Assembly (NCBI GenBank): GCA_964385685.1 | Contig: CAYLQD010000004.1 | Span: 29,397-93,396 of the forward strand | From: an uncultured Planctomycetota bacterium | GTDB lineage: Bacteria > Planctomycetota > PUPC01 | DNA length: 64,000 nucleotides | Reading direction: 5' to 3' | Shown: positions 23,924 to 30,569 of the stretch, piece after piece | How positions within the stretch are numbered: the stretch's first letter is position 1 | Layout: each line of letters opens with the position of its first letter | Made by a program: the position numbers and the translations under genes | The notes under the pieces: generated by a model | What the model was told of the DNA's origin: nothing | The model's database searches: none | The model's input: the letters and a program-made list of their open reading frames with translations, nothing else

Positions 23924-25291
23924 TCACTTGTTCAGCTCGCGGAGCTTCTTCTCGAGCAGAATCTCGTCGTCGCGGATGAGCACGTAGCGTTCGCGACCGA
24001 TCAGCTTGATTAGCCGGCGGATCGCCTGCTCGCGGGTCTCATCGGCATTCGCCTCGTAGCGCTTCCAAAACTGGTCCCACCAGTCGGGCGGCTCGAACTT
24101 CGGGCCGTCGTGTTCTGTCGGGCGGCCGGTCTCCCCTTCCACAACGAGGCTGCCAACGTAATCGGCATCGCGGTATGTCCGGTCGATCTGCGCCCGAACG
24201 GCGGCGATGTCGCGCTCGTTCACGACGCCGTTGCTCGTTGCTTTGTAGTATTGCACGGTCACGCGGATGGGATACTTCGGATCGCGCTCGATCGCCAGGT
24301 TGTCGATCTCCGTGAACGGGCCTTCGACGCGACCGTGGCCGATGACGGCCTCTTCCACATCACTGTCGGACCTTCGGACCACGGCGCTCTCCGCGAGCGC
24401 CATCACCTTGGGCTGTGGCCGCCGCTTGTGCTTTAGCGGCACCTGAATGAGCATCACCATGTTGAGACCGGCCGGGACGGTGGCCTGGTCGCCGCCGGCC
24501 TTTTCTTCACGCACCGGTGGGCCGAAGTCGCTAAGCCGCTGCCCCGTCAAGCTCGCGCGCTGGCCGCCCTGGTTGAAGAACAACCGCTGACCCCACGTGC
24601 GGCCCGCCGCAAAACCATCGCGGACGTTGTCGATCACGGTCGCGCTCGTGCCCTCGCGCGTGGCGAGGACCGTCAGCACCGCGGGATTGCCCCTATACGA
24701 CTGATAATTAAAGACAACGGGATTGAACTCCGCCTTGCCTCGTCTGGGCACGGGAAGGAAGCAGGCCTGGGCGCTAACGAGCGCGTGCGTGTCGCGCTTG
24801 GCGAGCAGCGACGCGCCCTTCCCTTTCCACGAGCCCGGCTTGCTCAGGTGCTTCTGGAAGTTACCGAGGTATTCGCGGAGTGCGACGCGGCGGAGCGAAC
24901 GGCCGGCCTCGTTGCCGACGAGCACGAAGAACTTCTCCATACGGATGTCGGCCGTCTTGTCGGAGAAGTTCGGGTGGCGGATGACGGGCATGCACGTAAG
25001 CCGGTACTTCTCGGTCCGCGGGTCCATGTACTGCACCTGTATTGTCATGTCGGAGATATTGGGCCCGACGGCCGAGTTCTTGAAACGCCCCGTGTCCTCC
25101 CACGTGAGGTTGATGAGGTTAAGCTGATGTTTGCGGACGAGCGCCTGGGCGCGCCGGTCGCGGACCATGTTGGCCGTCGCCTGGATGACGTGCCAGTGGT
25201 CGCGTTCCGGCGCAACCCTCGCTTCTCCGGCGGACGCCGTCGCCCCTGCGACAAGGATCAGCACAACGACAAGGTATCGTTTGGCGAACAT
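23924..25291 (-). CDS. hypothetical secreted protein
   Basis: 455 aa. N-terminal signal peptide (LVVVLILVAGATASAGEA). No recognisable domain. Confidence 0.55.
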   Translation of the reverse strand: MFAKRYLVVVLILVAGATASAGEARVAPERDHWHVIQATANMVRDRRAQALVRKHQLNLINLTWEDTGRFKNSAVGPNISDMTIQVQYMDPRTEKYRLTCMPVIRHPNFSDKTADIRMEKFFVLVGNEAGRSLRRVALREYLGNFQKHLSKPGSWKGKGASLLAKRDTHALVSAQACFLPVPRRGKAEFNPVVFNYQSYRGNPAVLTVLATREGTSATVIDNVRDGFAAGRTWGQRLFFNQGGQRASLTGQRLSDFGPPVREEKAGGDQATVPAGLNMVMLIQVPLKHKRRPQPKVMALAESAVVRRSDSDVEEAVIGHGRVEGPFTEIDNLAIERDPKYPIRVTVQYYKATSNGVVNERDIAAVRAQIDRTYRDADYVGSLVVEGETGRPTEHDGPKFEPPDWWDQFWKRYEANADETREQAIRRLIKLIGRERYVLIRDDEILLEKKLRELNK

Positions 25292-25375: not shown

Positions 25376-25412
25376 ACATGTTGATGAAAATGCGGAAGGT
25401 TTCGCGGCCGAA
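25376..25412. repeat. 37-bp direct repeat, left copy (ACATGTTGATGAAAATGCGGAAGGTTTCGCGGCCGAA)
   Basis: Matches 29951-29987 at 35/37 positions. On the minus strand it encodes a duplicated C-terminus …FGRETFRIFINM plus stop, identical to the end of the membrane-protein gene at 29949-30569. Confidence 0.85.
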
Positions 25413-25521
25413 GAGCGACCGAACGTGCTTGCCAAGAGCCGAGGGGGCCTCTACAATACTCCCGTCCGGCGCGACGCTGGGGCGCCCGAGTCGACAACCC
25501 ATTACGCAGGGAAGCAGTTCA

Positions 25522-28251
25522 TTGCCTGAGCAGATCAAGGACCTCGACAACCTCGAGCCCATCGATCATGCGGTGATCGCGAAGCCGCACACGCCGGCCT
25601 ACAAGATGCACCGCTACTTCGCACGGCGGCCGTGGAGCGTCTTCCGAGCGCTCATCGAGCACTACTCCAATCCTGGCAGCATTGTGCTCGACCCCTTCTG
25701 CGGCGGCGGGGTGACCGTCGTCGAGGGACTTCGGCTCGGCCGCAAGGTTATCGGCGTGGACTTGAACTCGCTGGCGACGTTCATCACGCGCATGGAGGCG
25801 ACCGACGTTGACCTCGATGAATTGCAGGCGGCCTTCGACGCGGTCGAGGCGGCCTGCCGCGAGAAGATCGAAGCGCTCTACATGACCACCTGCCCGAAGT
25901 GCGGCGAGCGTGTCGCAGCCGACTGGTTTGAGTGGAGCAACGTCGTCGAATGTCGAGAGTGCGGCCGGGTCGTGGAACTCCACCGGGCCGAGCGGGTGCG
26001 CAAGGGCGAGAAGATCGCTGGTGTGTCGGCAGGGGAGTACAAGTGCTACCACAAAGGTTGCGAGGCCGCTTGGCGCCCCTCGCAGTGTGACCGAGTCGAT
26101 CCAGTGCTCGTCCGCGTACACGTCAGGTGTCCGAGATGCAAACACCGGGGGGACTTTGGCCCAGCGGCGGATGATCTGCGATTGGCGGATTCCATTCGTA
26201 GCGACCTCGATGCGTGCATGAGGCGCGAGAGACTGTGGTACCCGGACATCGAGATGCCGGATTGGTGGGATCTGCGCCGTCCGTACAATGCGCACATCAA
26301 GCGGTTCGCCCACCTGTTCACACCTCGGAATCTGCTGGCGAACGCTGTCCTTGCAAAGAGCGTGACGGAGGGCCCTTTCGAGGGTCAGGTGCAGAACCTT
26401 CTTGTGTTTGCCTTCAGCGCGTCGCTCCGATTCACCAACCGGATGGTCTTCCGCAACCCGGGCTGGCAAGGCGGAAAGCCCATCGAATGGGCGAGCAGTA
26501 CGTACTGGCTGCCGGAAGTCTTCTGCGAAATAAACACATGGGCCGCATGGGAGAACAGACGAAGGTCGGTAACCCGGGGCAAGCAGTACTCCTGTGAGGA
26601 AATCGGGGACAAATCGGTTCTATGCGACCGCTACGAAGACCTGCGCACCGACGGAACAGCGTTTGTGTGGGCGGGCAGTTCGACCGACCTTCCGCTGCCC
26701 GACAACTCAGCGGACGTGGTCATCACCGACCCGCCTTACGGGAACAACGTCCTGTACGCCGAACTCTGCAATTTCTACTGGGCATGGGTCGGGCGTATGC
26801 TGGAATCGAACGGCCTGATCGACGACTCGGAGGAGGCCATTGTCAGCAAGAAGCATGACAAGGGACTCGCGGAGTATCGGGACCTGCTTTTCCGGGTCTT
26901 CAAGGAATGTCATCGCGTCCTCAAGCCGGGCCGATGGATGGTCATGACGTTCCACAACAAGGAGTTCCAGGTCTGGAATGCCATCCATCTTGCGGCACAC
27001 GACGCCGGGTTTGTCCTGGCCGAGCACGATGGGATGATCTACCAGCCGCCGATCAAGAACTACACGCAGACGATCCAGACCCGAAGAAGCGGTTCGATGC
27101 TCGGCGATTTCATCCTCTCATTCCAGAAGGTGGAGGGGCCGCCGGCGTTCAGGCAGATCGAGCACGCAGAGATCGGGCGGCAGGTCGAGCGCCTGGCGTC
27201 AGAAGCGGTCATGCACCATCACGGCGCCACGCTTTCGATGATATACATGAAGCTGATGCCGTGGCTTCTGAACAACAACCTGCTCGACCAAATCGGCGAG
27301 AAAGAGGTGGTTCCGTTCCTCCGCGGGAACTTCGAGGAGCGGGACGGTGTGTGGCACGTGAAGGAGGTGCAGGGGGCAGAGCTGCGGCAGGCGATGGAGG
27401 AATACAGCCGTCAGCACTACAAGGCATCCTACGAAGAACTGAACTTCGTGCCGGTTGAGGCGCGCATCGAGTACCTCGTCAAGCGCCTGCTCTACGGAAA
27501 GGGCTACGCGACCCAGGACGAGGTCCTGAACACGATCTACACGAACCTCATCAACTCAAACATGGCTGAGGCGCGCGAAATCCACTTGGTGCTCAACAGC
27601 ATAGCCCAGCTCGTGCCCCTGTCCGACGTAACGGGCGGCGGGCGGAAGAAAAAAAGCGGCCGGAAGGTCTGGCGCCTCAAGGAAGACATCGAGCGCGACT
27701 CGCTTTTCCGCGACGTAGAGGGCGCCGACGTTCAGTATCGGCTCGCAAGCTCGGAGGAATCCGACCACGACCTGGCAATCGCGCGCCTGGTCGAAATGGC
27801 GGCGATGCAAGGCATGAAAGCGCACATCGGCAAGACGGAGCAGACGAAGTACACCGAGTTCCGCATCATGACGAGCGACCTGCCGCAGCGCGTGGCGGGA
27901 ATGCCGAAGGCGGCGCGCGAAATCGTGGAGCAGATCGACGTCCTCTGGCACAATGGCGGGAAGGGGGTCGTCGCCGCGTTCGAGGTCGAGCGGACGACGA
28001 CCATCACGAGCGGGATTGACCGCTTTCGCAACCTCCTCGCGGCGGCGCCGGACATCGAGGTCGAACTGTACCTCGTTGTGCCCAAATCCCGCGCGAGGGA
28101 AGTACGGGCCAAGATTGGCTCGCCCGCCAATCGCAAGGACGGCCTTGACAAGAGAATCGGCTACATCTTTCTGGAAGACTTGAACATTCGGAATCGCAGC
28201 GCGTCCAAGGTCGATTTCGAGAAAATCAAGCACAAGGTCAACGGCAAATGA
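25522..28251 (+). CDS. DUF1156-like N6-adenine/N4-cytosine DNA methyltransferase with Cys-rich insert and ~450-aa C-terminal extension
   Basis: MHRYFARRPWSVFRALIEHYSNPGSIVLDPFCGGGVT (DUF1156-like 'WWARRP' segment plus FxGxG motif I). Downstream VVITDPPYGNNV (DPPY motif IV). Several CxxC pairs lie between (CPKCG…CRECG, CPRCKH). The maximal ORF begins at 25378, inside the direct repeat; a likelier start is TTG 25522 (GGGAAG upstream). Start uncertain. Confidence 0.75.
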   Translation: MPEQIKDLDNLEPIDHAVIAKPHTPAYKMHRYFARRPWSVFRALIEHYSNPGSIVLDPFCGGGVTVVEGLRLGRKVIGVDLNSLATFITRMEATDVDLDELQAAFDAVEAACREKIEALYMTTCPKCGERVAADWFEWSNVVECRECGRVVELHRAERVRKGEKIAGVSAGEYKCYHKGCEAAWRPSQCDRVDPVLVRVHVRCPRCKHRGDFGPAADDLRLADSIRSDLDACMRRERLWYPDIEMPDWWDLRRPYNAHIKRFAHLFTPRNLLANAVLAKSVTEGPFEGQVQNLLVFAFSASLRFTNRMVFRNPGWQGGKPIEWASSTYWLPEVFCEINTWAAWENRRRSVTRGKQYSCEEIGDKSVLCDRYEDLRTDGTAFVWAGSSTDLPLPDNSADVVITDPPYGNNVLYAELCNFYWAWVGRMLESNGLIDDSEEAIVSKKHDKGLAEYRDLLFRVFKECHRVLKPGRWMVMTFHNKEFQVWNAIHLAAHDAGFVLAEHDGMIYQPPIKNYTQTIQTRRSGSMLGDFILSFQKVEGPPAFRQIEHAEIGRQVERLASEAVMHHHGATLSMIYMKLMPWLLNNNLLDQIGEKEVVPFLRGNFEERDGVWHVKEVQGAELRQAMEEYSRQHYKASYEELNFVPVEARIEYLVKRLLYGKGYATQDEVLNTIYTNLINSNMAEAREIHLVLNSIAQLVPLSDVTGGGRKKKSGRKVWRLKEDIERDSLFRDVEGADVQYRLASSEESDHDLAIARLVEMAAMQGMKAHIGKTEQTKYTEFRIMTSDLPQRVAGMPKAAREIVEQIDVLWHNGGKGVVAAFEVERTTTITSGIDRFRNLLAAAPDIEVELYLVVPKSRAREVRAKIGSPANRKDGLDKRIGYIFLEDLNIRNRSASKVDFEKIKHKVNGK

Positions 28252-29942
28252 GCGGACTTCTGTCGCCAGACCAGGTTGATGAGCGCCGGGAGTTGTTTCG
28301 GCGGTGCCTGAACATGGACATCCTTCGAGCGCAGCGCTATGCGGTAGAACTCTCCGAAGAGAAGTTCCTCGAAGCCATCAACGGCACGGCGCGAGACCTG
28401 CTCGGGATGAACATGAAGGTTCCGGCTGATTTCCCTGACAACTATTTCGGCCAGTACTACACGATTCAGAACCGGACGCTCGCCGCCGGCAACATCTGGG
28501 ATCAGTTGGAAAACGACATCGTGCAGTGTCTCACGGCTGAGCGGGAGACGCGCGAAGCCCTGGAGTACTTCCTGAATCAGCCGGGATACGAAGCAGACTT
28601 CACTGGGATCAAGGCGCGATTCAACCGATGGCGGAATACACTGGATGTCCTCCTCGGCTTCCGCCTTATCCGCAAGATGCCAAGCCGGACCCGGGACGTC
28701 ACGACCTACGCTCTCTATAACGAGATGGCCCCCTTGCTGAGACGGGTCCTTTCGTCTTCGGCGGCCGACGACCTGCCGGTCATCAACTCGGAAGCGGCGC
28801 AGGCCGAGCTTGCGAACGTCCACGAAATGGAGCGCGAATACGAGCAGTACCTCGAAGGACTGGTCGAGCAGCGCCTGGACGAGACCGTCGAGTTCGGACG
28901 GCAGCACATGAGCTTAGGACTCGTCGCCACGTACTTCAAGGAACTCTTCGGCGGCCTGCTTTATTTCGACGTGCTGCTCTCGTTGGCCCAGCAGTACGGC
29001 ATGACCGCCACGGACATCGTGAATCCCGAGGGCACCAAGGCCGGCTCGACGGGCTTTCATCTGGCGCTCTTCGGCGCTCCGGGAACCGGGAAGACTTTTG
29101 CCATCAAAGACATGATTATGGGCGATGAAAGCAGGACCATACGGCCCCACGGGCTCCCGGGCCTCAACCGGTACTGCGGCGGGATGACGGCGGCAAACTT
29201 CATCCGCATCGGCGAAGCGTACCAGGGCAAGCGTTTCAACTTCGTTGTCACCGAGTTCAACGACTGGTTCCGGTACAAAGGGATGGTCGAACCGCTCAAG
29301 TTAGCCCTTGAGCAGGGCACCATCCGTTACGAGACAAAGACCGAGACTATCGGACCGTACAAATTCAGTTGCTATTTCTCCACCAACTACAACACGAAAA
29401 CAGACAAGGAAGCAGGCTACAGGGTCACGGTTGCTGATCCGAACTTCAACGCCATAGAGGACAGGATGCTCGTTCGGATGCACCGTATGACGAAGGAACG
29501 GCTCGGAGAACTAAGCCGCAGCCAGCGCGATCTCGCGATGGGACGCATGAAGATGCGCCTGGCGGACCAGATAAGAGATCACCTGACCCTTGTATACGCT
29601 GTCCAGACGGAACATCCCCTGGTGAGTGCGCGGTTCCCCAGAAAGCAAGTGGTCTTGAGAGAGGGCTTCTTTGACGCGCTGGAGCACGCCCAGGAAGCTC
29701 TTCTTCGCCAGATAGAGGGGCGTATCCTCTTCAGCATCCGCGTGCGGCAAAACGCCATCAAGTTGGCCGGGGCGTTGGCACTCCTATCCTCTTTCCGGGG
29801 CGACCTCGCACGGCTCGAGATTCCCGATGAGGCGCGCGACCTTGCGCTCCGCTTCTTCGTGGAGGAGATCGCCGTCCGACAGAAGGTTGCCGTAGACGTC
29901 AACGCTGTTCTCGGCGAGCTGCCTGCCGGGCTCGCCAAGTGA
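28248..29942 (+). CDS. P-loop (AAA+-like) ATPase with ~270-aa N-terminal domain of unknown function
   Basis: Walker A LALFGAPGTGKTF, Walker B-like FNFVVTEFNDW, sensor-like CYFSTNYNT. The ATG overlaps the MTase stop (ATGA), implying translational coupling. Confidence 0.7.
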   Translation: MSGLLSPDQVDERRELFRRCLNMDILRAQRYAVELSEEKFLEAINGTARDLLGMNMKVPADFPDNYFGQYYTIQNRTLAAGNIWDQLENDIVQCLTAERETREALEYFLNQPGYEADFTGIKARFNRWRNTLDVLLGFRLIRKMPSRTRDVTTYALYNEMAPLLRRVLSSSAADDLPVINSEAAQAELANVHEMEREYEQYLEGLVEQRLDETVEFGRQHMSLGLVATYFKELFGGLLYFDVLLSLAQQYGMTATDIVNPEGTKAGSTGFHLALFGAPGTGKTFAIKDMIMGDESRTIRPHGLPGLNRYCGGMTAANFIRIGEAYQGKRFNFVVTEFNDWFRYKGMVEPLKLALEQGTIRYETKTETIGPYKFSCYFSTNYNTKTDKEAGYRVTVADPNFNAIEDRMLVRMHRMTKERLGELSRSQRDLAMGRMKMRLADQIRDHLTLVYAVQTEHPLVSARFPRKQVVLREGFFDALEHAQEALLRQIEGRILFSIRVRQNAIKLAGALALLSSFRGDLARLEIPDEARDLALRFFVEEIAVRQKVAVDVNAVLGELPAGLAK

Positions 29943-29948
29943 CCCAAT

Positions 29949-30569
29949 TCACATATTGATGAAAATGCGGAAGGTCTCGCGGCCGAACAATGTAACGAGA
30001 GTCACAACAACGCCCGCGAGCAGCACGCCGGCGAGGATGCCGGGGAACGCCCGCCGCGCCCGCACGTGCATCAGGAACGCGAGCAGCGAGCCGGTCCATG
30101 CGCCCGTCACGGGCAAGGGAATCGCCACGAAGATCGCGAGCCCGAGCGCTTCGTACTTCTCGACAAGGTCCCCTCCCCGCCGCCGCGATCGCTCGAAGAC
30201 CCATGTGAAGAACCGGTGCCAGAGCTTCGACCGCTTCATCAGAAAGCTTGAGACGGGGCCGATCAGCAGGATGATGGGGATGATGGGGATCAGGTTGCCG
30301 ATGACGGACAACACGTATGCCTGCCACCACGGCATCTTGTAGTACAGGATCGCGACGGGGATCGAGCCGCGGAGTTCGAGGATCGGAAGGGTCGCGAGGA
30401 TAACGACCACGGCCGACGGCCCGGCGCCCTGCCCCTCCAGCCATCGGACCAGCTTCGGCGGCTCACTCGTCGCCTCGTCGGCGGCGCTCAGGGCGGCCTG
30501 CAGCGGGCCTGCGAGAAGGACGACGCAGAGAAGAACGGCCGCACAGAGGGATGCTCGGGGCGTTCGCAT
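29949..30569 (-). CDS. small multidrug-export-like membrane protein (COG2426/Sm_multidrug_ex-like)
   Basis: Maximal ORF runs to 30707, but ATG at 30569 overlaps the bioA stop (TGATG). LPILELRGSIPVAI…LGLAIFVAIPLPVTGAWTGSLLAF resembles the Sm_multidrug_ex family. Confidence 0.65.
   Translation of the reverse strand: MRTPRASLCAAVLLCVVLLAGPLQAALSAADEATSEPPKLVRWLEGQGAGPSAVVVILATLPILELRGSIPVAILYYKMPWWQAYVLSVIGNLIPIIPIILLIGPVSSFLMKRSKLWHRFFTWVFERSRRRGGDLVEKYEALGLAIFVAIPLPVTGAWTGSLLAFLMHVRARRAFPGILAGVLLAGVVVTLVTLFGRETFRIFINM
29951..29987. repeat. 37-bp direct repeat, right copy (ACATATTGATGAAAATGCGGAAGGTCTCGCGGCCGAA)
   Basis: It is the authentic 3' end (last 12 codons + TGA) of the membrane-protein gene 29949-30569. 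Confidence 0.85.

Follow-up and report, generated by a model that had tools for sequence, protein, structure and literature searches.

In a 64,000-nt stretch of DNA from an uncultured Planctomycetota bacterium (hereafter the window), we analyzed two adjoining genes. The first encodes a 909-aa fusion of a methyltransferase, predicted helix-turn-helix (HTH) domains and a restriction-endonuclease-type domain, and the second a 564-aa AAA+ ATPase with an MCM-like fold. On balance, we think that the two genes probably constitute an ATP-assisted single-chain restriction-modification (RM) system, horizontally acquired as a two-gene defense cassette. The idea of a single-chain RM enzyme partnered with an ATPase comes from an original prediction made from the sequence alone; comparison with homologs and predicted structures lend it support, with the reservation that a sister clade of the fusion lacks the ATPase. 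Throughout, coordinates are those of the window and residue numbers those of the 909-aa protein unless stated otherwise.

Domain architecture of the fusion protein

The original prediction had pointed to a possible PD-(D/E)xK-like patch, IDVLWHNGGKGVVAAFEVERTT (IDVLW...FEVERTT), in the C-terminal part of the protein. This patch (residues 805-826) proved to be the conserved core of the NmeDI_C family (PF27126), to which the domain is assigned by a precomputed match on an identical database protein, and the domain is accordingly predicted to be a nuclease. D806, E821 and E823 are invariant in an alignment of 40 homologs. D806 and E821 are present in every sequence (100%) of a wider set of 125 diverse domains, in which R834 is kept in 98%, H749 in 94% and E823 in 85%. 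When 1.84 billion cluster representatives were searched with a profile of residues 738-909, 1374 matched, 816 with E<=1e-10. Most of these matches are 226-480 aa long and carry the domain at the C-terminus, and some of the members that we sampled have reader domains, EVE or Mrr_N, N-terminal to it. One member adjoins a Vsr gene and an EcoRII-like protein; another, named 'type II restriction endonuclease' by the Prokaryotic Genome Annotation Pipeline (PGAP), lies beside a methyltransferase on a Paraburkholderia plasmid. In a BLASTP comparison, the window domain is 35% identical (E=1e-17) to a 350-aa stand-alone protein (P0401). R.NmeDI itself, a type II endonuclease of 351 aa, has been characterized experimentally and cleaves on either side of RCCGGY (PMC2095814).

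In the AlphaFold model, D806 opens a strand (807-810), and E821 and E823 close the hairpin strand 816-822; the hairpin is flanked by helices 740-762 and 828-841, after which comes strand 848-853. The predicted order of these secondary structure elements agrees with the alpha-beta-beta-beta-alpha-beta core of restriction endonucleases, and so does the placement of D806 and E821-x-E823. We looked for signs that the C-terminus is a mere helical spacer and that the close homologs are orphan methylases, and found neither. Remote searches were uninformative for this domain: two profiles of it (A4 and A5) gave nothing meaningful against PDB sequences, nor did Pfam scans, in which 1 of 22 members matched PDDEXK_10 at E=0.06. 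With hhalign, A4 reached a probability below 1% against single Mrr_cat and PDDEXK_3 proteins, and a Foldseek search of PDB with the whole 909-aa model returned methyltransferases only and nothing on the C-terminal domain. It is also worth pointing out that in one locus (L092, 189-5146) the gene of a 1271-aa BrxC/PglY_N-DUF6079 ATPase and that of a 381-aa NmeDI_C protein overlap at the end of the former. Judging by this overlap, the nuclease module has been recruited by ATPases of the bacteriophage exclusion (BREX) type as well.

Residues 1-540 can be assigned to a PF01555-type methyltransferase, which the DPPY motif suggests to be specific for adenine. The match to N6_N4_Mtase (PF01555) scores 75.2 bits against a cut-off of 26.7 and comes in two pieces. 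Residues 30-82 correspond to positions 160-212 of the 221-position profile, that is, to its C-terminal, motif-I part, and the part with DPPY follows about 350 residues later. Since the two pieces are reversed and so far apart, the domain is a permuted one, interrupted by a large insert, in the order motif I, insert, motif IV. DPPY had been noticed roughly 340 residues downstream of motif I, and the measured distance of 346 residues agrees well with this. Both FCGGG (59-63) and DPPY are invariant in the 40-homolog alignment. The full-length AlphaFold model, built on this 40-sequence alignment (mean predicted local distance difference test score, pLDDT, of 80.8), places Rossmann strands at 54-57 and 75-80 and extends the fold to about residue 540, the last strands being at 529-536. 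The best PADLOC match is PglXI (E=1.5e-60, residues 74-615), and residues 1-720 as a whole fit the description of PglXI/BrxXI of type-3 BREX. The N-terminus had earlier been taken to be DUF1156-like, but it turned out to be the motif-I half of the permuted PF01555 domain. A Pfam scan at E<=0.1 gave no DUF1156 match, and the NCBIfam model DUF1156_antiphage (NF042963) reached 58.6 bits against a cut-off of 1000 and covered residues 262-496 only. PADLOC models DUF1156_MTase (7.9e-11, residues 263-485 only) and HmaB (1e-10) were far behind PglXI.

The cysteine-rich region between motifs I and IV had been proposed to be a zinc-binding target-recognition insert, and this proposal holds up well. Its four cysteine pairs (CPKC at 124/127, CREC at 144/147, CYHKGC at 175/180 and CPRC at 203/206) comprise eight cysteines, all invariant or at least 90% conserved among the 40 homologs, which are 44-76% identical to the window protein. 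In the model these pairs are held by zinc-ribbon beta-hairpins that open the insert (pLDDT 84-97), and Pfam gives weak Zn_ribbon_3 and LysW matches in the same stretch. According to a comparative study of 2026 (PMC12839542), BrxXI/PglXI has a short N-terminal lead-in, HTH domains behind the core and, between strands 2 and 3, a target-recognition insert of about 250 residues whose apex is formed by a four-cysteine zinc finger. By analogy, the insert of the window protein, of the same place and make-up, is a putative target-recognition domain.

As to the C-terminal extension, it does exist, but it spans about 370 aa and not the previously estimated ~450, since the methyltransferase fold reaches to about residue 540. 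Nor is it a single domain. The model shows two helix-helix-helix-strand-strand units (548-613 and 665-719), which we predict to be winged-helix-like DNA-binding domains analogous to the C-terminal HTH domains of BrxXI, and only then the 170-aa nuclease-type domain.

The partner ATPase and its genomic neighborhoods

The second gene encodes an ATPase whose Walker A motif is invariant (residue numbers in this paragraph are those of the 564-aa protein). It is followed by a Walker B-like motif VVTEFND (333-339) with an invariant E336, then by a sensor-1-like STNYN and by EDRM, whose invariant R406 is, by analogy, a candidate arginine finger. When the AlphaFold model (mean pLDDT 85.8) was compared with PDB structures using Foldseek, all of the top 50 matches were MCM2-7 subunits (E from 1e-7 to 4e-6). 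Together with the invariant Walker A/B motifs and arginine, these matches identify an MCM-type fold, the likeness being one of fold. Because 344-488 columns are aligned, the match reaches past the AAA+ core into the N-terminal domain. To our knowledge, BrxL is the only known defense protein with an MCM-like match extending beyond the AAA+ core. BrxL forms MCM-like, DNA-bound rings and has MCM proteins as its nearest structural relatives (PMC10164562). Sequence searches were far less telling. In Pfam, NCBIfam and PADLOC we obtained only sub-threshold P-loop matches (AAA_22, mad8, IetA), no PADLOC-DB 2.0 model of a known or candidate system matched significantly, and neither the protein nor its profile found MCM, BrxL or any other AAA+ protein among PDB sequences.

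In 50 of the 120 listed homologs of the ATPase (P0126 and 49 others) the protein is longer, 790-835 aa, owing to an extra C-terminal domain of about 256 aa. Within these 50 proteins an RNxAAH (Rx4H) motif is at least 95% conserved, along with a glutamate. The domain has no Pfam match, and by this motif we regard it as HEPN-like. Most of the closest relatives of the window ATPase have it; the window copy and a few Phycisphaerae relatives do not.

The association of the two genes extends well beyond the window. Homologs of each protein number more than 1000 and come from uncultured bacteria and archaea. Among 16 genome loci of the close clade, which represent Planctomycetota, Stahlbacteria, Methanosarcinales, Micrarchaeota and Aenigmatarchaeota, the ATPase is present in 15, and wherever present it is immediately downstream of the fusion; the same order is seen in loci L002, L004 and L005. 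In addition, for 31 listed methylase homologs the length of the longest contig is identical to that of a listed ATPase homolog, an indication that both lie on the same contig. We also looked from the side of the ATPase, taking 68 metagenomic loci with enough upstream DNA. The gene immediately upstream encodes the methylase-nuclease fusion in 37 of them and an unrelated Type IIG restriction-methylase of about 1040 aa (PADLOC REase_MTase_IIG, E=1e-96) in 23. A Type IIG gene lies convergently downstream of the ATPase in three more loci, and another PF01555-like methylase is found in one. In other words, the ATPase adjoins a large methylase-type gene in 64 of 68 loci. The suspected partnership is therefore a genuinely conserved one, and the ATPase family is a dedicated companion of single-chain restriction-methylases of two classes.

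Several neighborhoods deserve mention in their own right. L005 (1190-16203, on a 585-kb metagenomic contig) holds the cassette in a dense defense island with GIY-YIG, an N6_N4_Mtase-Mrr_cat fusion, Mrr_cat/NA-iREase1, AIPR and PDDEXK_3, and an HTH_17 gene abuts the start of the methylase. Distant ATPase homologs follow the ~1040-aa Type IIG restriction-methylase in L093 (2869-7749) and L094 (2447-10369); in L094 the pair sits among EVE, DndB, HEPN_AbiV and SMC/Rad50-like genes, in what looks like a defense island. There is also a further clade of the methylase that has no nuclease domain and that in Clostridium stands in tandem with a second methylase beside a helicase-nuclease. In Clostridium aciditolerans (L074, 6956-13165) and Caproiciproducens (L076, 6800-13102), a nuclease-less methylase of about 640-690 aa precedes a second PF01555 methylase of about 460 aa. 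In the former, the next open reading frame (ORF), of 970 aa and on the opposite strand, matches ResIII, Helicase_C, Mrr_cat_2 and RE_AlwI; a 950-aa ORF is similarly placed in the latter. This gene order resembles a Type III-like or BR-like arrangement.

The start codon and the insertion signature

The ORF of the fusion gene, 25378-28251, was confirmed in the window, but its first ATG (25378) lies, as had been pointed out before, within a direct repeat (25376-25412). The start codon is most likely TTG 25522, for three reasons: an identical 909-aa protein (P0001) is called on an independent assembly, the N-termini of the 40 homologs lie about five residues ahead of the conserved K6-D7-L8, and the sigma70-like promoter match within the cassette is located downstream of the ATG and upstream of the TTG. 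On the same observations, ATG 25378 was rejected as the start. Every motif named in the original prediction is present, and conservation across the 40 homologs indicates that the pattern is selected and not due to chance; only the residue numbers, counted from ATG 25378, were 48 too high. Table 1 lists the features of the cassette.

Table 1. Positions of cassette features in the window. Residues in brackets refer to the encoded protein (909 aa, or 564 aa for the ATPase rows)
Feature	Position	Strand	Basis or remark
Direct repeat, left copy (37 nt)	25376..25412	.	duplicated Sm_multidrug_ex 3' end; minus strand reads LFGRETFRIFINM followed by stop
Sigma70-like promoter match TTGCCA-17-TACAAT	25429..25457	+	10/12; consensus match only
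Methyltransferase / HTH / nuclease fusion gene	25522..28251	+	TTG start (most likely), 909 aa
YFARRPW (32-38) and motif I LDPFCGGGVT (56-65), S-adenosylmethionine-binding half of PF01555 at N-terminus	25615..25716	+	Pfam match
Insert of ~250 aa (~120-375) between Rossmann strands 2 and 3, predicted target-recognition domain	25879..26646	+	AlphaFold model and PglXI likeness
Two predicted Cys4 zinc-ribbon sites, C124/C127/C144/C147 and C175/C180/C203/C206	25891..26139	+	conservation and model
Catalytic motif IV DPPY (403-406)	26728..26739	+	sequence and alignment
Array of predicted HTH / winged-helix-like domains (~548-720)	27163..27681	+	DSSP helix-helix-helix-strand-strand, twice in model
NmeDI_C (PF27126) restriction-endonuclease-type domain (740-909)	27739..28248	+	candidate site H749, D806, E821, E823
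MCM-like AAA+ ATPase gene, 564 aa	28248..29942	+	overlaps methylase stop codon by 4 nt
AAA+ core (~255-460)	29010..29627	+	invariant columns; MCM fold matches; motifs assigned by analogy
Walker A GAPGTGKT (276-283)	29073..29096	+	invariant
Direct repeat, right copy (37 nt)	29951..29987	.	true 3' end of minus-strand Sm_multidrug_ex gene (29949-30569)

The two genes look like a horizontally acquired, repeat-flanked insertion. The repeat copies, identical at 35 of 37 positions (95%) and spaced 4575 nt apart, bracket exactly the promoter and the two genes, so that the cassette corresponds to 25413-29950 (~4.5 kb); a repeat match of this kind occurred in none of 100 shuffles. The repeat duplicates the final 13 codons and the stop of Sm_multidrug_ex. 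As both copies encode LFGRETFRIFINM followed by the stop, the cassette lies within a gene end that has been duplicated, in the manner of site-specific integrants. GC content is 0.604 in the cassette and 0.64-0.65 in its flanks, and homologs encoded in archaeal bins are 53-74% identical, an indication that horizontal transfer has been wide. No recombinase or integrase, primase or replication-initiator gene is found between the repeats. The window neighbors of the cassette are housekeeping genes (thioredoxin, Sm_multidrug_ex, aminotransferase, TrkAH).

Related loci offer further observations. In L004 (5759-7900, Levyibacteriota), a homologous cassette stands beside a large serine recombinase and an Sm_multidrug_ex gene, and the sequences hint that Sm_multidrug_ex might be a recurrent integration target. 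In L002 (7805-7907 and 12420-12590, Planctomycetota), the cassette is bracketed by a different repeat of about 60 nt, present once upstream and twice downstream (111 nt apart), with a spacing of ~4.6 kb. The frame of the ATPase in this locus (P0168) enters the downstream repeat and ends in low-complexity sequence, and this copy may be damaged. A search for an empty target site produced no example: all four displayed places (of six contigs) with an identical Sm_multidrug_ex also hold the cassette. Carriage by plasmids or viruses was likewise rejected, as PLSDB contains neither the full-length fusion nor the ATPase and IMG/VR contigs contain no relative of the ATPase. Next to the cassette but outside the repeats lies a divergent 455-aa ORF on the minus strand (23924-25291). 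It has no Pfam match and is unrelated to the ORFs flanking the cassette in L002 and L004, and was discarded as a third conserved component.

Proposed function, alternatives and relation to known systems

Based on these observations, the following scheme can be put forward. The methylase would recognize its site through the zinc-ribbon insert and the HTH array and, judging by DPPY, would produce N6-methyladenine. The NmeDI_C domain, by its homology and its candidate residues H749, D806, E821 and E823, would cut DNA lacking this methyl mark. The ATPase, which may be translationally coupled to the fusion gene, would, as suggested by its MCM/BrxL-like fold, assemble as a ring on DNA; given this fold and the pairing of the genes, the ring may spend ATP on licensing the fused nuclease or else on delivering it through translocation or clamping, a role that McrB has towards McrC and that BrxL may have in BREX. 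It is tempting to go one step further and to see in the pair a new class of ATP-dependent RM, in effect a minimal two-gene relative of BREX. Here an MCM/BrxL-like hexameric ring would drive or license a single-chain methylase-nuclease, and the latter would be of the PglXI kind with an NmeDI_C nuclease or else of the Type IIG kind. Such a class could reveal what BrxL-type rings do in methylation-based immunity. We put this forward tentatively, as a possibility that falls somewhat short of being probable.

Several points weigh against an ATP-assisted RM system. E823 occupies the place where the lysine of PD-(D/E)xK is expected, making the active site atypical, and in part of the wider family it is replaced by A, I or G. 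An E in place of the K resembles the acidic triad of BamHI. That R.NmeDI belongs to PF27126 is suggested by the Pfam name and by the matching architecture of about 350 aa. The MCM likeness of the ATPase is at the level of fold only, with query template modeling (TM) scores of 0.33-0.41, and no MCM (PF00493), BrxL or McrB sequence model matches the protein. Finally, in the 23 loci of the sister clade (33-39% identity to the fusion) there is neither the ATPase nor any conserved neighbor. The fusion thus does not depend on the ATPase in every case, and it may be able to work alone.

This last point leads to one of the alternatives, namely that the fusion is a self-sufficient Type IIC/IIG-like enzyme and the ATPase a separate add-on with no part in cleavage, which might act as a regulator, as an anti-anti-restriction factor or as a backup through abortive infection. 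No ATPase is required by classical Type IIG enzymes, and the HEPN-like tail seen in 50 of the 120 listed homologs of the ATPase would be appropriate for an RNase effector held in reserve. However, the window ATPase lacks this domain, the genes share 4 nt, and in all loci of the close clade that have the ATPase it directly follows the fusion. Moreover, its pairing with methylase-type genes of two unrelated classes in 64 of 68 loci suggests physical or functional coupling, and we consider an independent ATPase quite unlikely. Another possibility is an exclusion mechanism akin to that of BREX, where the methylase marks self, the ring loads onto unmodified DNA of the invader and blocks its replication, and the NmeDI_C domain does no more than nick, bind or sense DNA. 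The PglXI-like methylase core (PMC12839542) speaks for it, as does the fold class shared with BrxL, for which helicase activity has not been demonstrated and a block of replication has been proposed (PMC10164562), and so does the NmeDI_C protein beside a BrxC/PglY_N-type ATPase in L092. On the other hand, PglZ, BrxC, BrxA/B and a helicase are missing from the window and from related loci, BrxL is reported to be absent from type-3 BREX (PMC12839542), and the PADLOC models of BrxL miss the ATPase. In addition, the strict family-wide conservation of D806 and E821 argues for catalysis. Exclusion without cleavage as the main act thus seems to us unlikely, though not implausible.

A role outside defense appears very improbable. 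It would make the first protein an orphan or regulatory methyltransferase whose nuclease-like tail has degenerated and binds DNA, and the second a replicative helicase of the MCM type, left over from an integrated element. The cassette is indeed flanked by repeats, and cleavage by an ATP-assisted RM system is a prediction only. MCM-like helicases are also common in integrated elements. Against this, no relative of the ATPase occurs on IMG/VR viral contigs or on plasmids, and the repeats enclose no integrase, primase or replication-initiator gene. Both proteins keep their catalytic-type residues, and the ATPase pairs with restriction-methylase fusions of two classes.

The cassette bears on two questions about BREX, namely by what means it stops phage and what part its MCM-like BrxL ring plays. 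It combines a BREX-type methylase core, a recognizable nuclease-type domain and a BrxL-like ring, reduced to two genes, and it looks like an uncharacterized, widely transferred variant of RM/BREX-type defense. The pairing of the ATPase with unrelated Type IIG enzymes suggests a more general design, 'ring ATPase plus single-chain RM', that is missing from current defense catalogs. We found no description of this gene pair in the literature, of which our coverage was incomplete, so that novelty is not thereby proven. If an ATP-assisted single-chain RM system is indeed at work here, Type II-like restriction would gain an ATP-dependent branch, and the coupling of an AAA+ ring to methylation-based discrimination of self and non-self could be studied in a simple system. 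It would also supply new enzymes, potentially with new specificities.

Among known systems, PglXI/BrxXI shares with the fusion the PF01555-type Rossmann core, the short N-terminal lead-in, the Cys4-bearing insert of about 250 aa and the HTH or winged HTH domains after the core. It differs in that only residues 74-615 align to the PADLOC model, and in that the window protein has two Cys4 sites and a terminal nuclease domain, the latter not described for BrxXI. The operon of type-3 BREX (BrxC, PglZ, BrxHII, BrxA/B/F) is absent from the window, where the 564-aa ATPase is the sole conserved partner. That ATPase resembles BrxL of BREX types 1 and 4 in having an N-terminal domain followed by an MCM-like AAA+ core and in accompanying a large site-specific methylase (PMC10164562, PMC12839542). 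Unlike BrxL, it has no sequence-model match and no Lon-like C-terminal domain, and it is encoded in a two-gene context and not in a six-gene BREX operon. McrBC offers a functional analogy, an AAA+ ring motor coupled to a nuclease of the restriction-endonuclease fold. Yet McrBC, which is directed at modified DNA, lacks a methylase, its McrB subunit is a GTPase recognizable by signature motifs of its own, and neither window protein matches the McrB or McrC models. The methylases of DISARM (DUF1156) and of the DUF499 'BR'/Hma systems have a distantly related core and an ARRP-type motif before motif I, whereas the window cassette lacks the DUF499 ATPase or helicase partner.

The likeness to R.NmeDI is confined to the C-terminal 170 aa, which match Pfam NmeDI_C with the H, D and E residues conserved family-wide. 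R.NmeDI is a stand-alone enzyme of 351 aa with a separate methylase (PMC2095814), whereas the window domain is fused to the methylase, and where R.NmeDI has its N-terminal recognition part, the window protein has the methylase, the insert and the HTH array. In the overall layout, with methylase, specificity and nuclease modules apparently in one chain, the fusion comes close to Type IIG/IIC enzymes of the MmeI and Eco57I type, and distant homologs of the window ATPase do adjoin IIG-like proteins. Nonetheless, a classical Type IIG enzyme has an N-terminal nuclease and a gamma-class (PF02384) methylase and can do without an ATPase, whereas the window protein combines a C-terminal NmeDI_C domain with a permuted PF01555 methylase and has a dedicated AAA+ partner.

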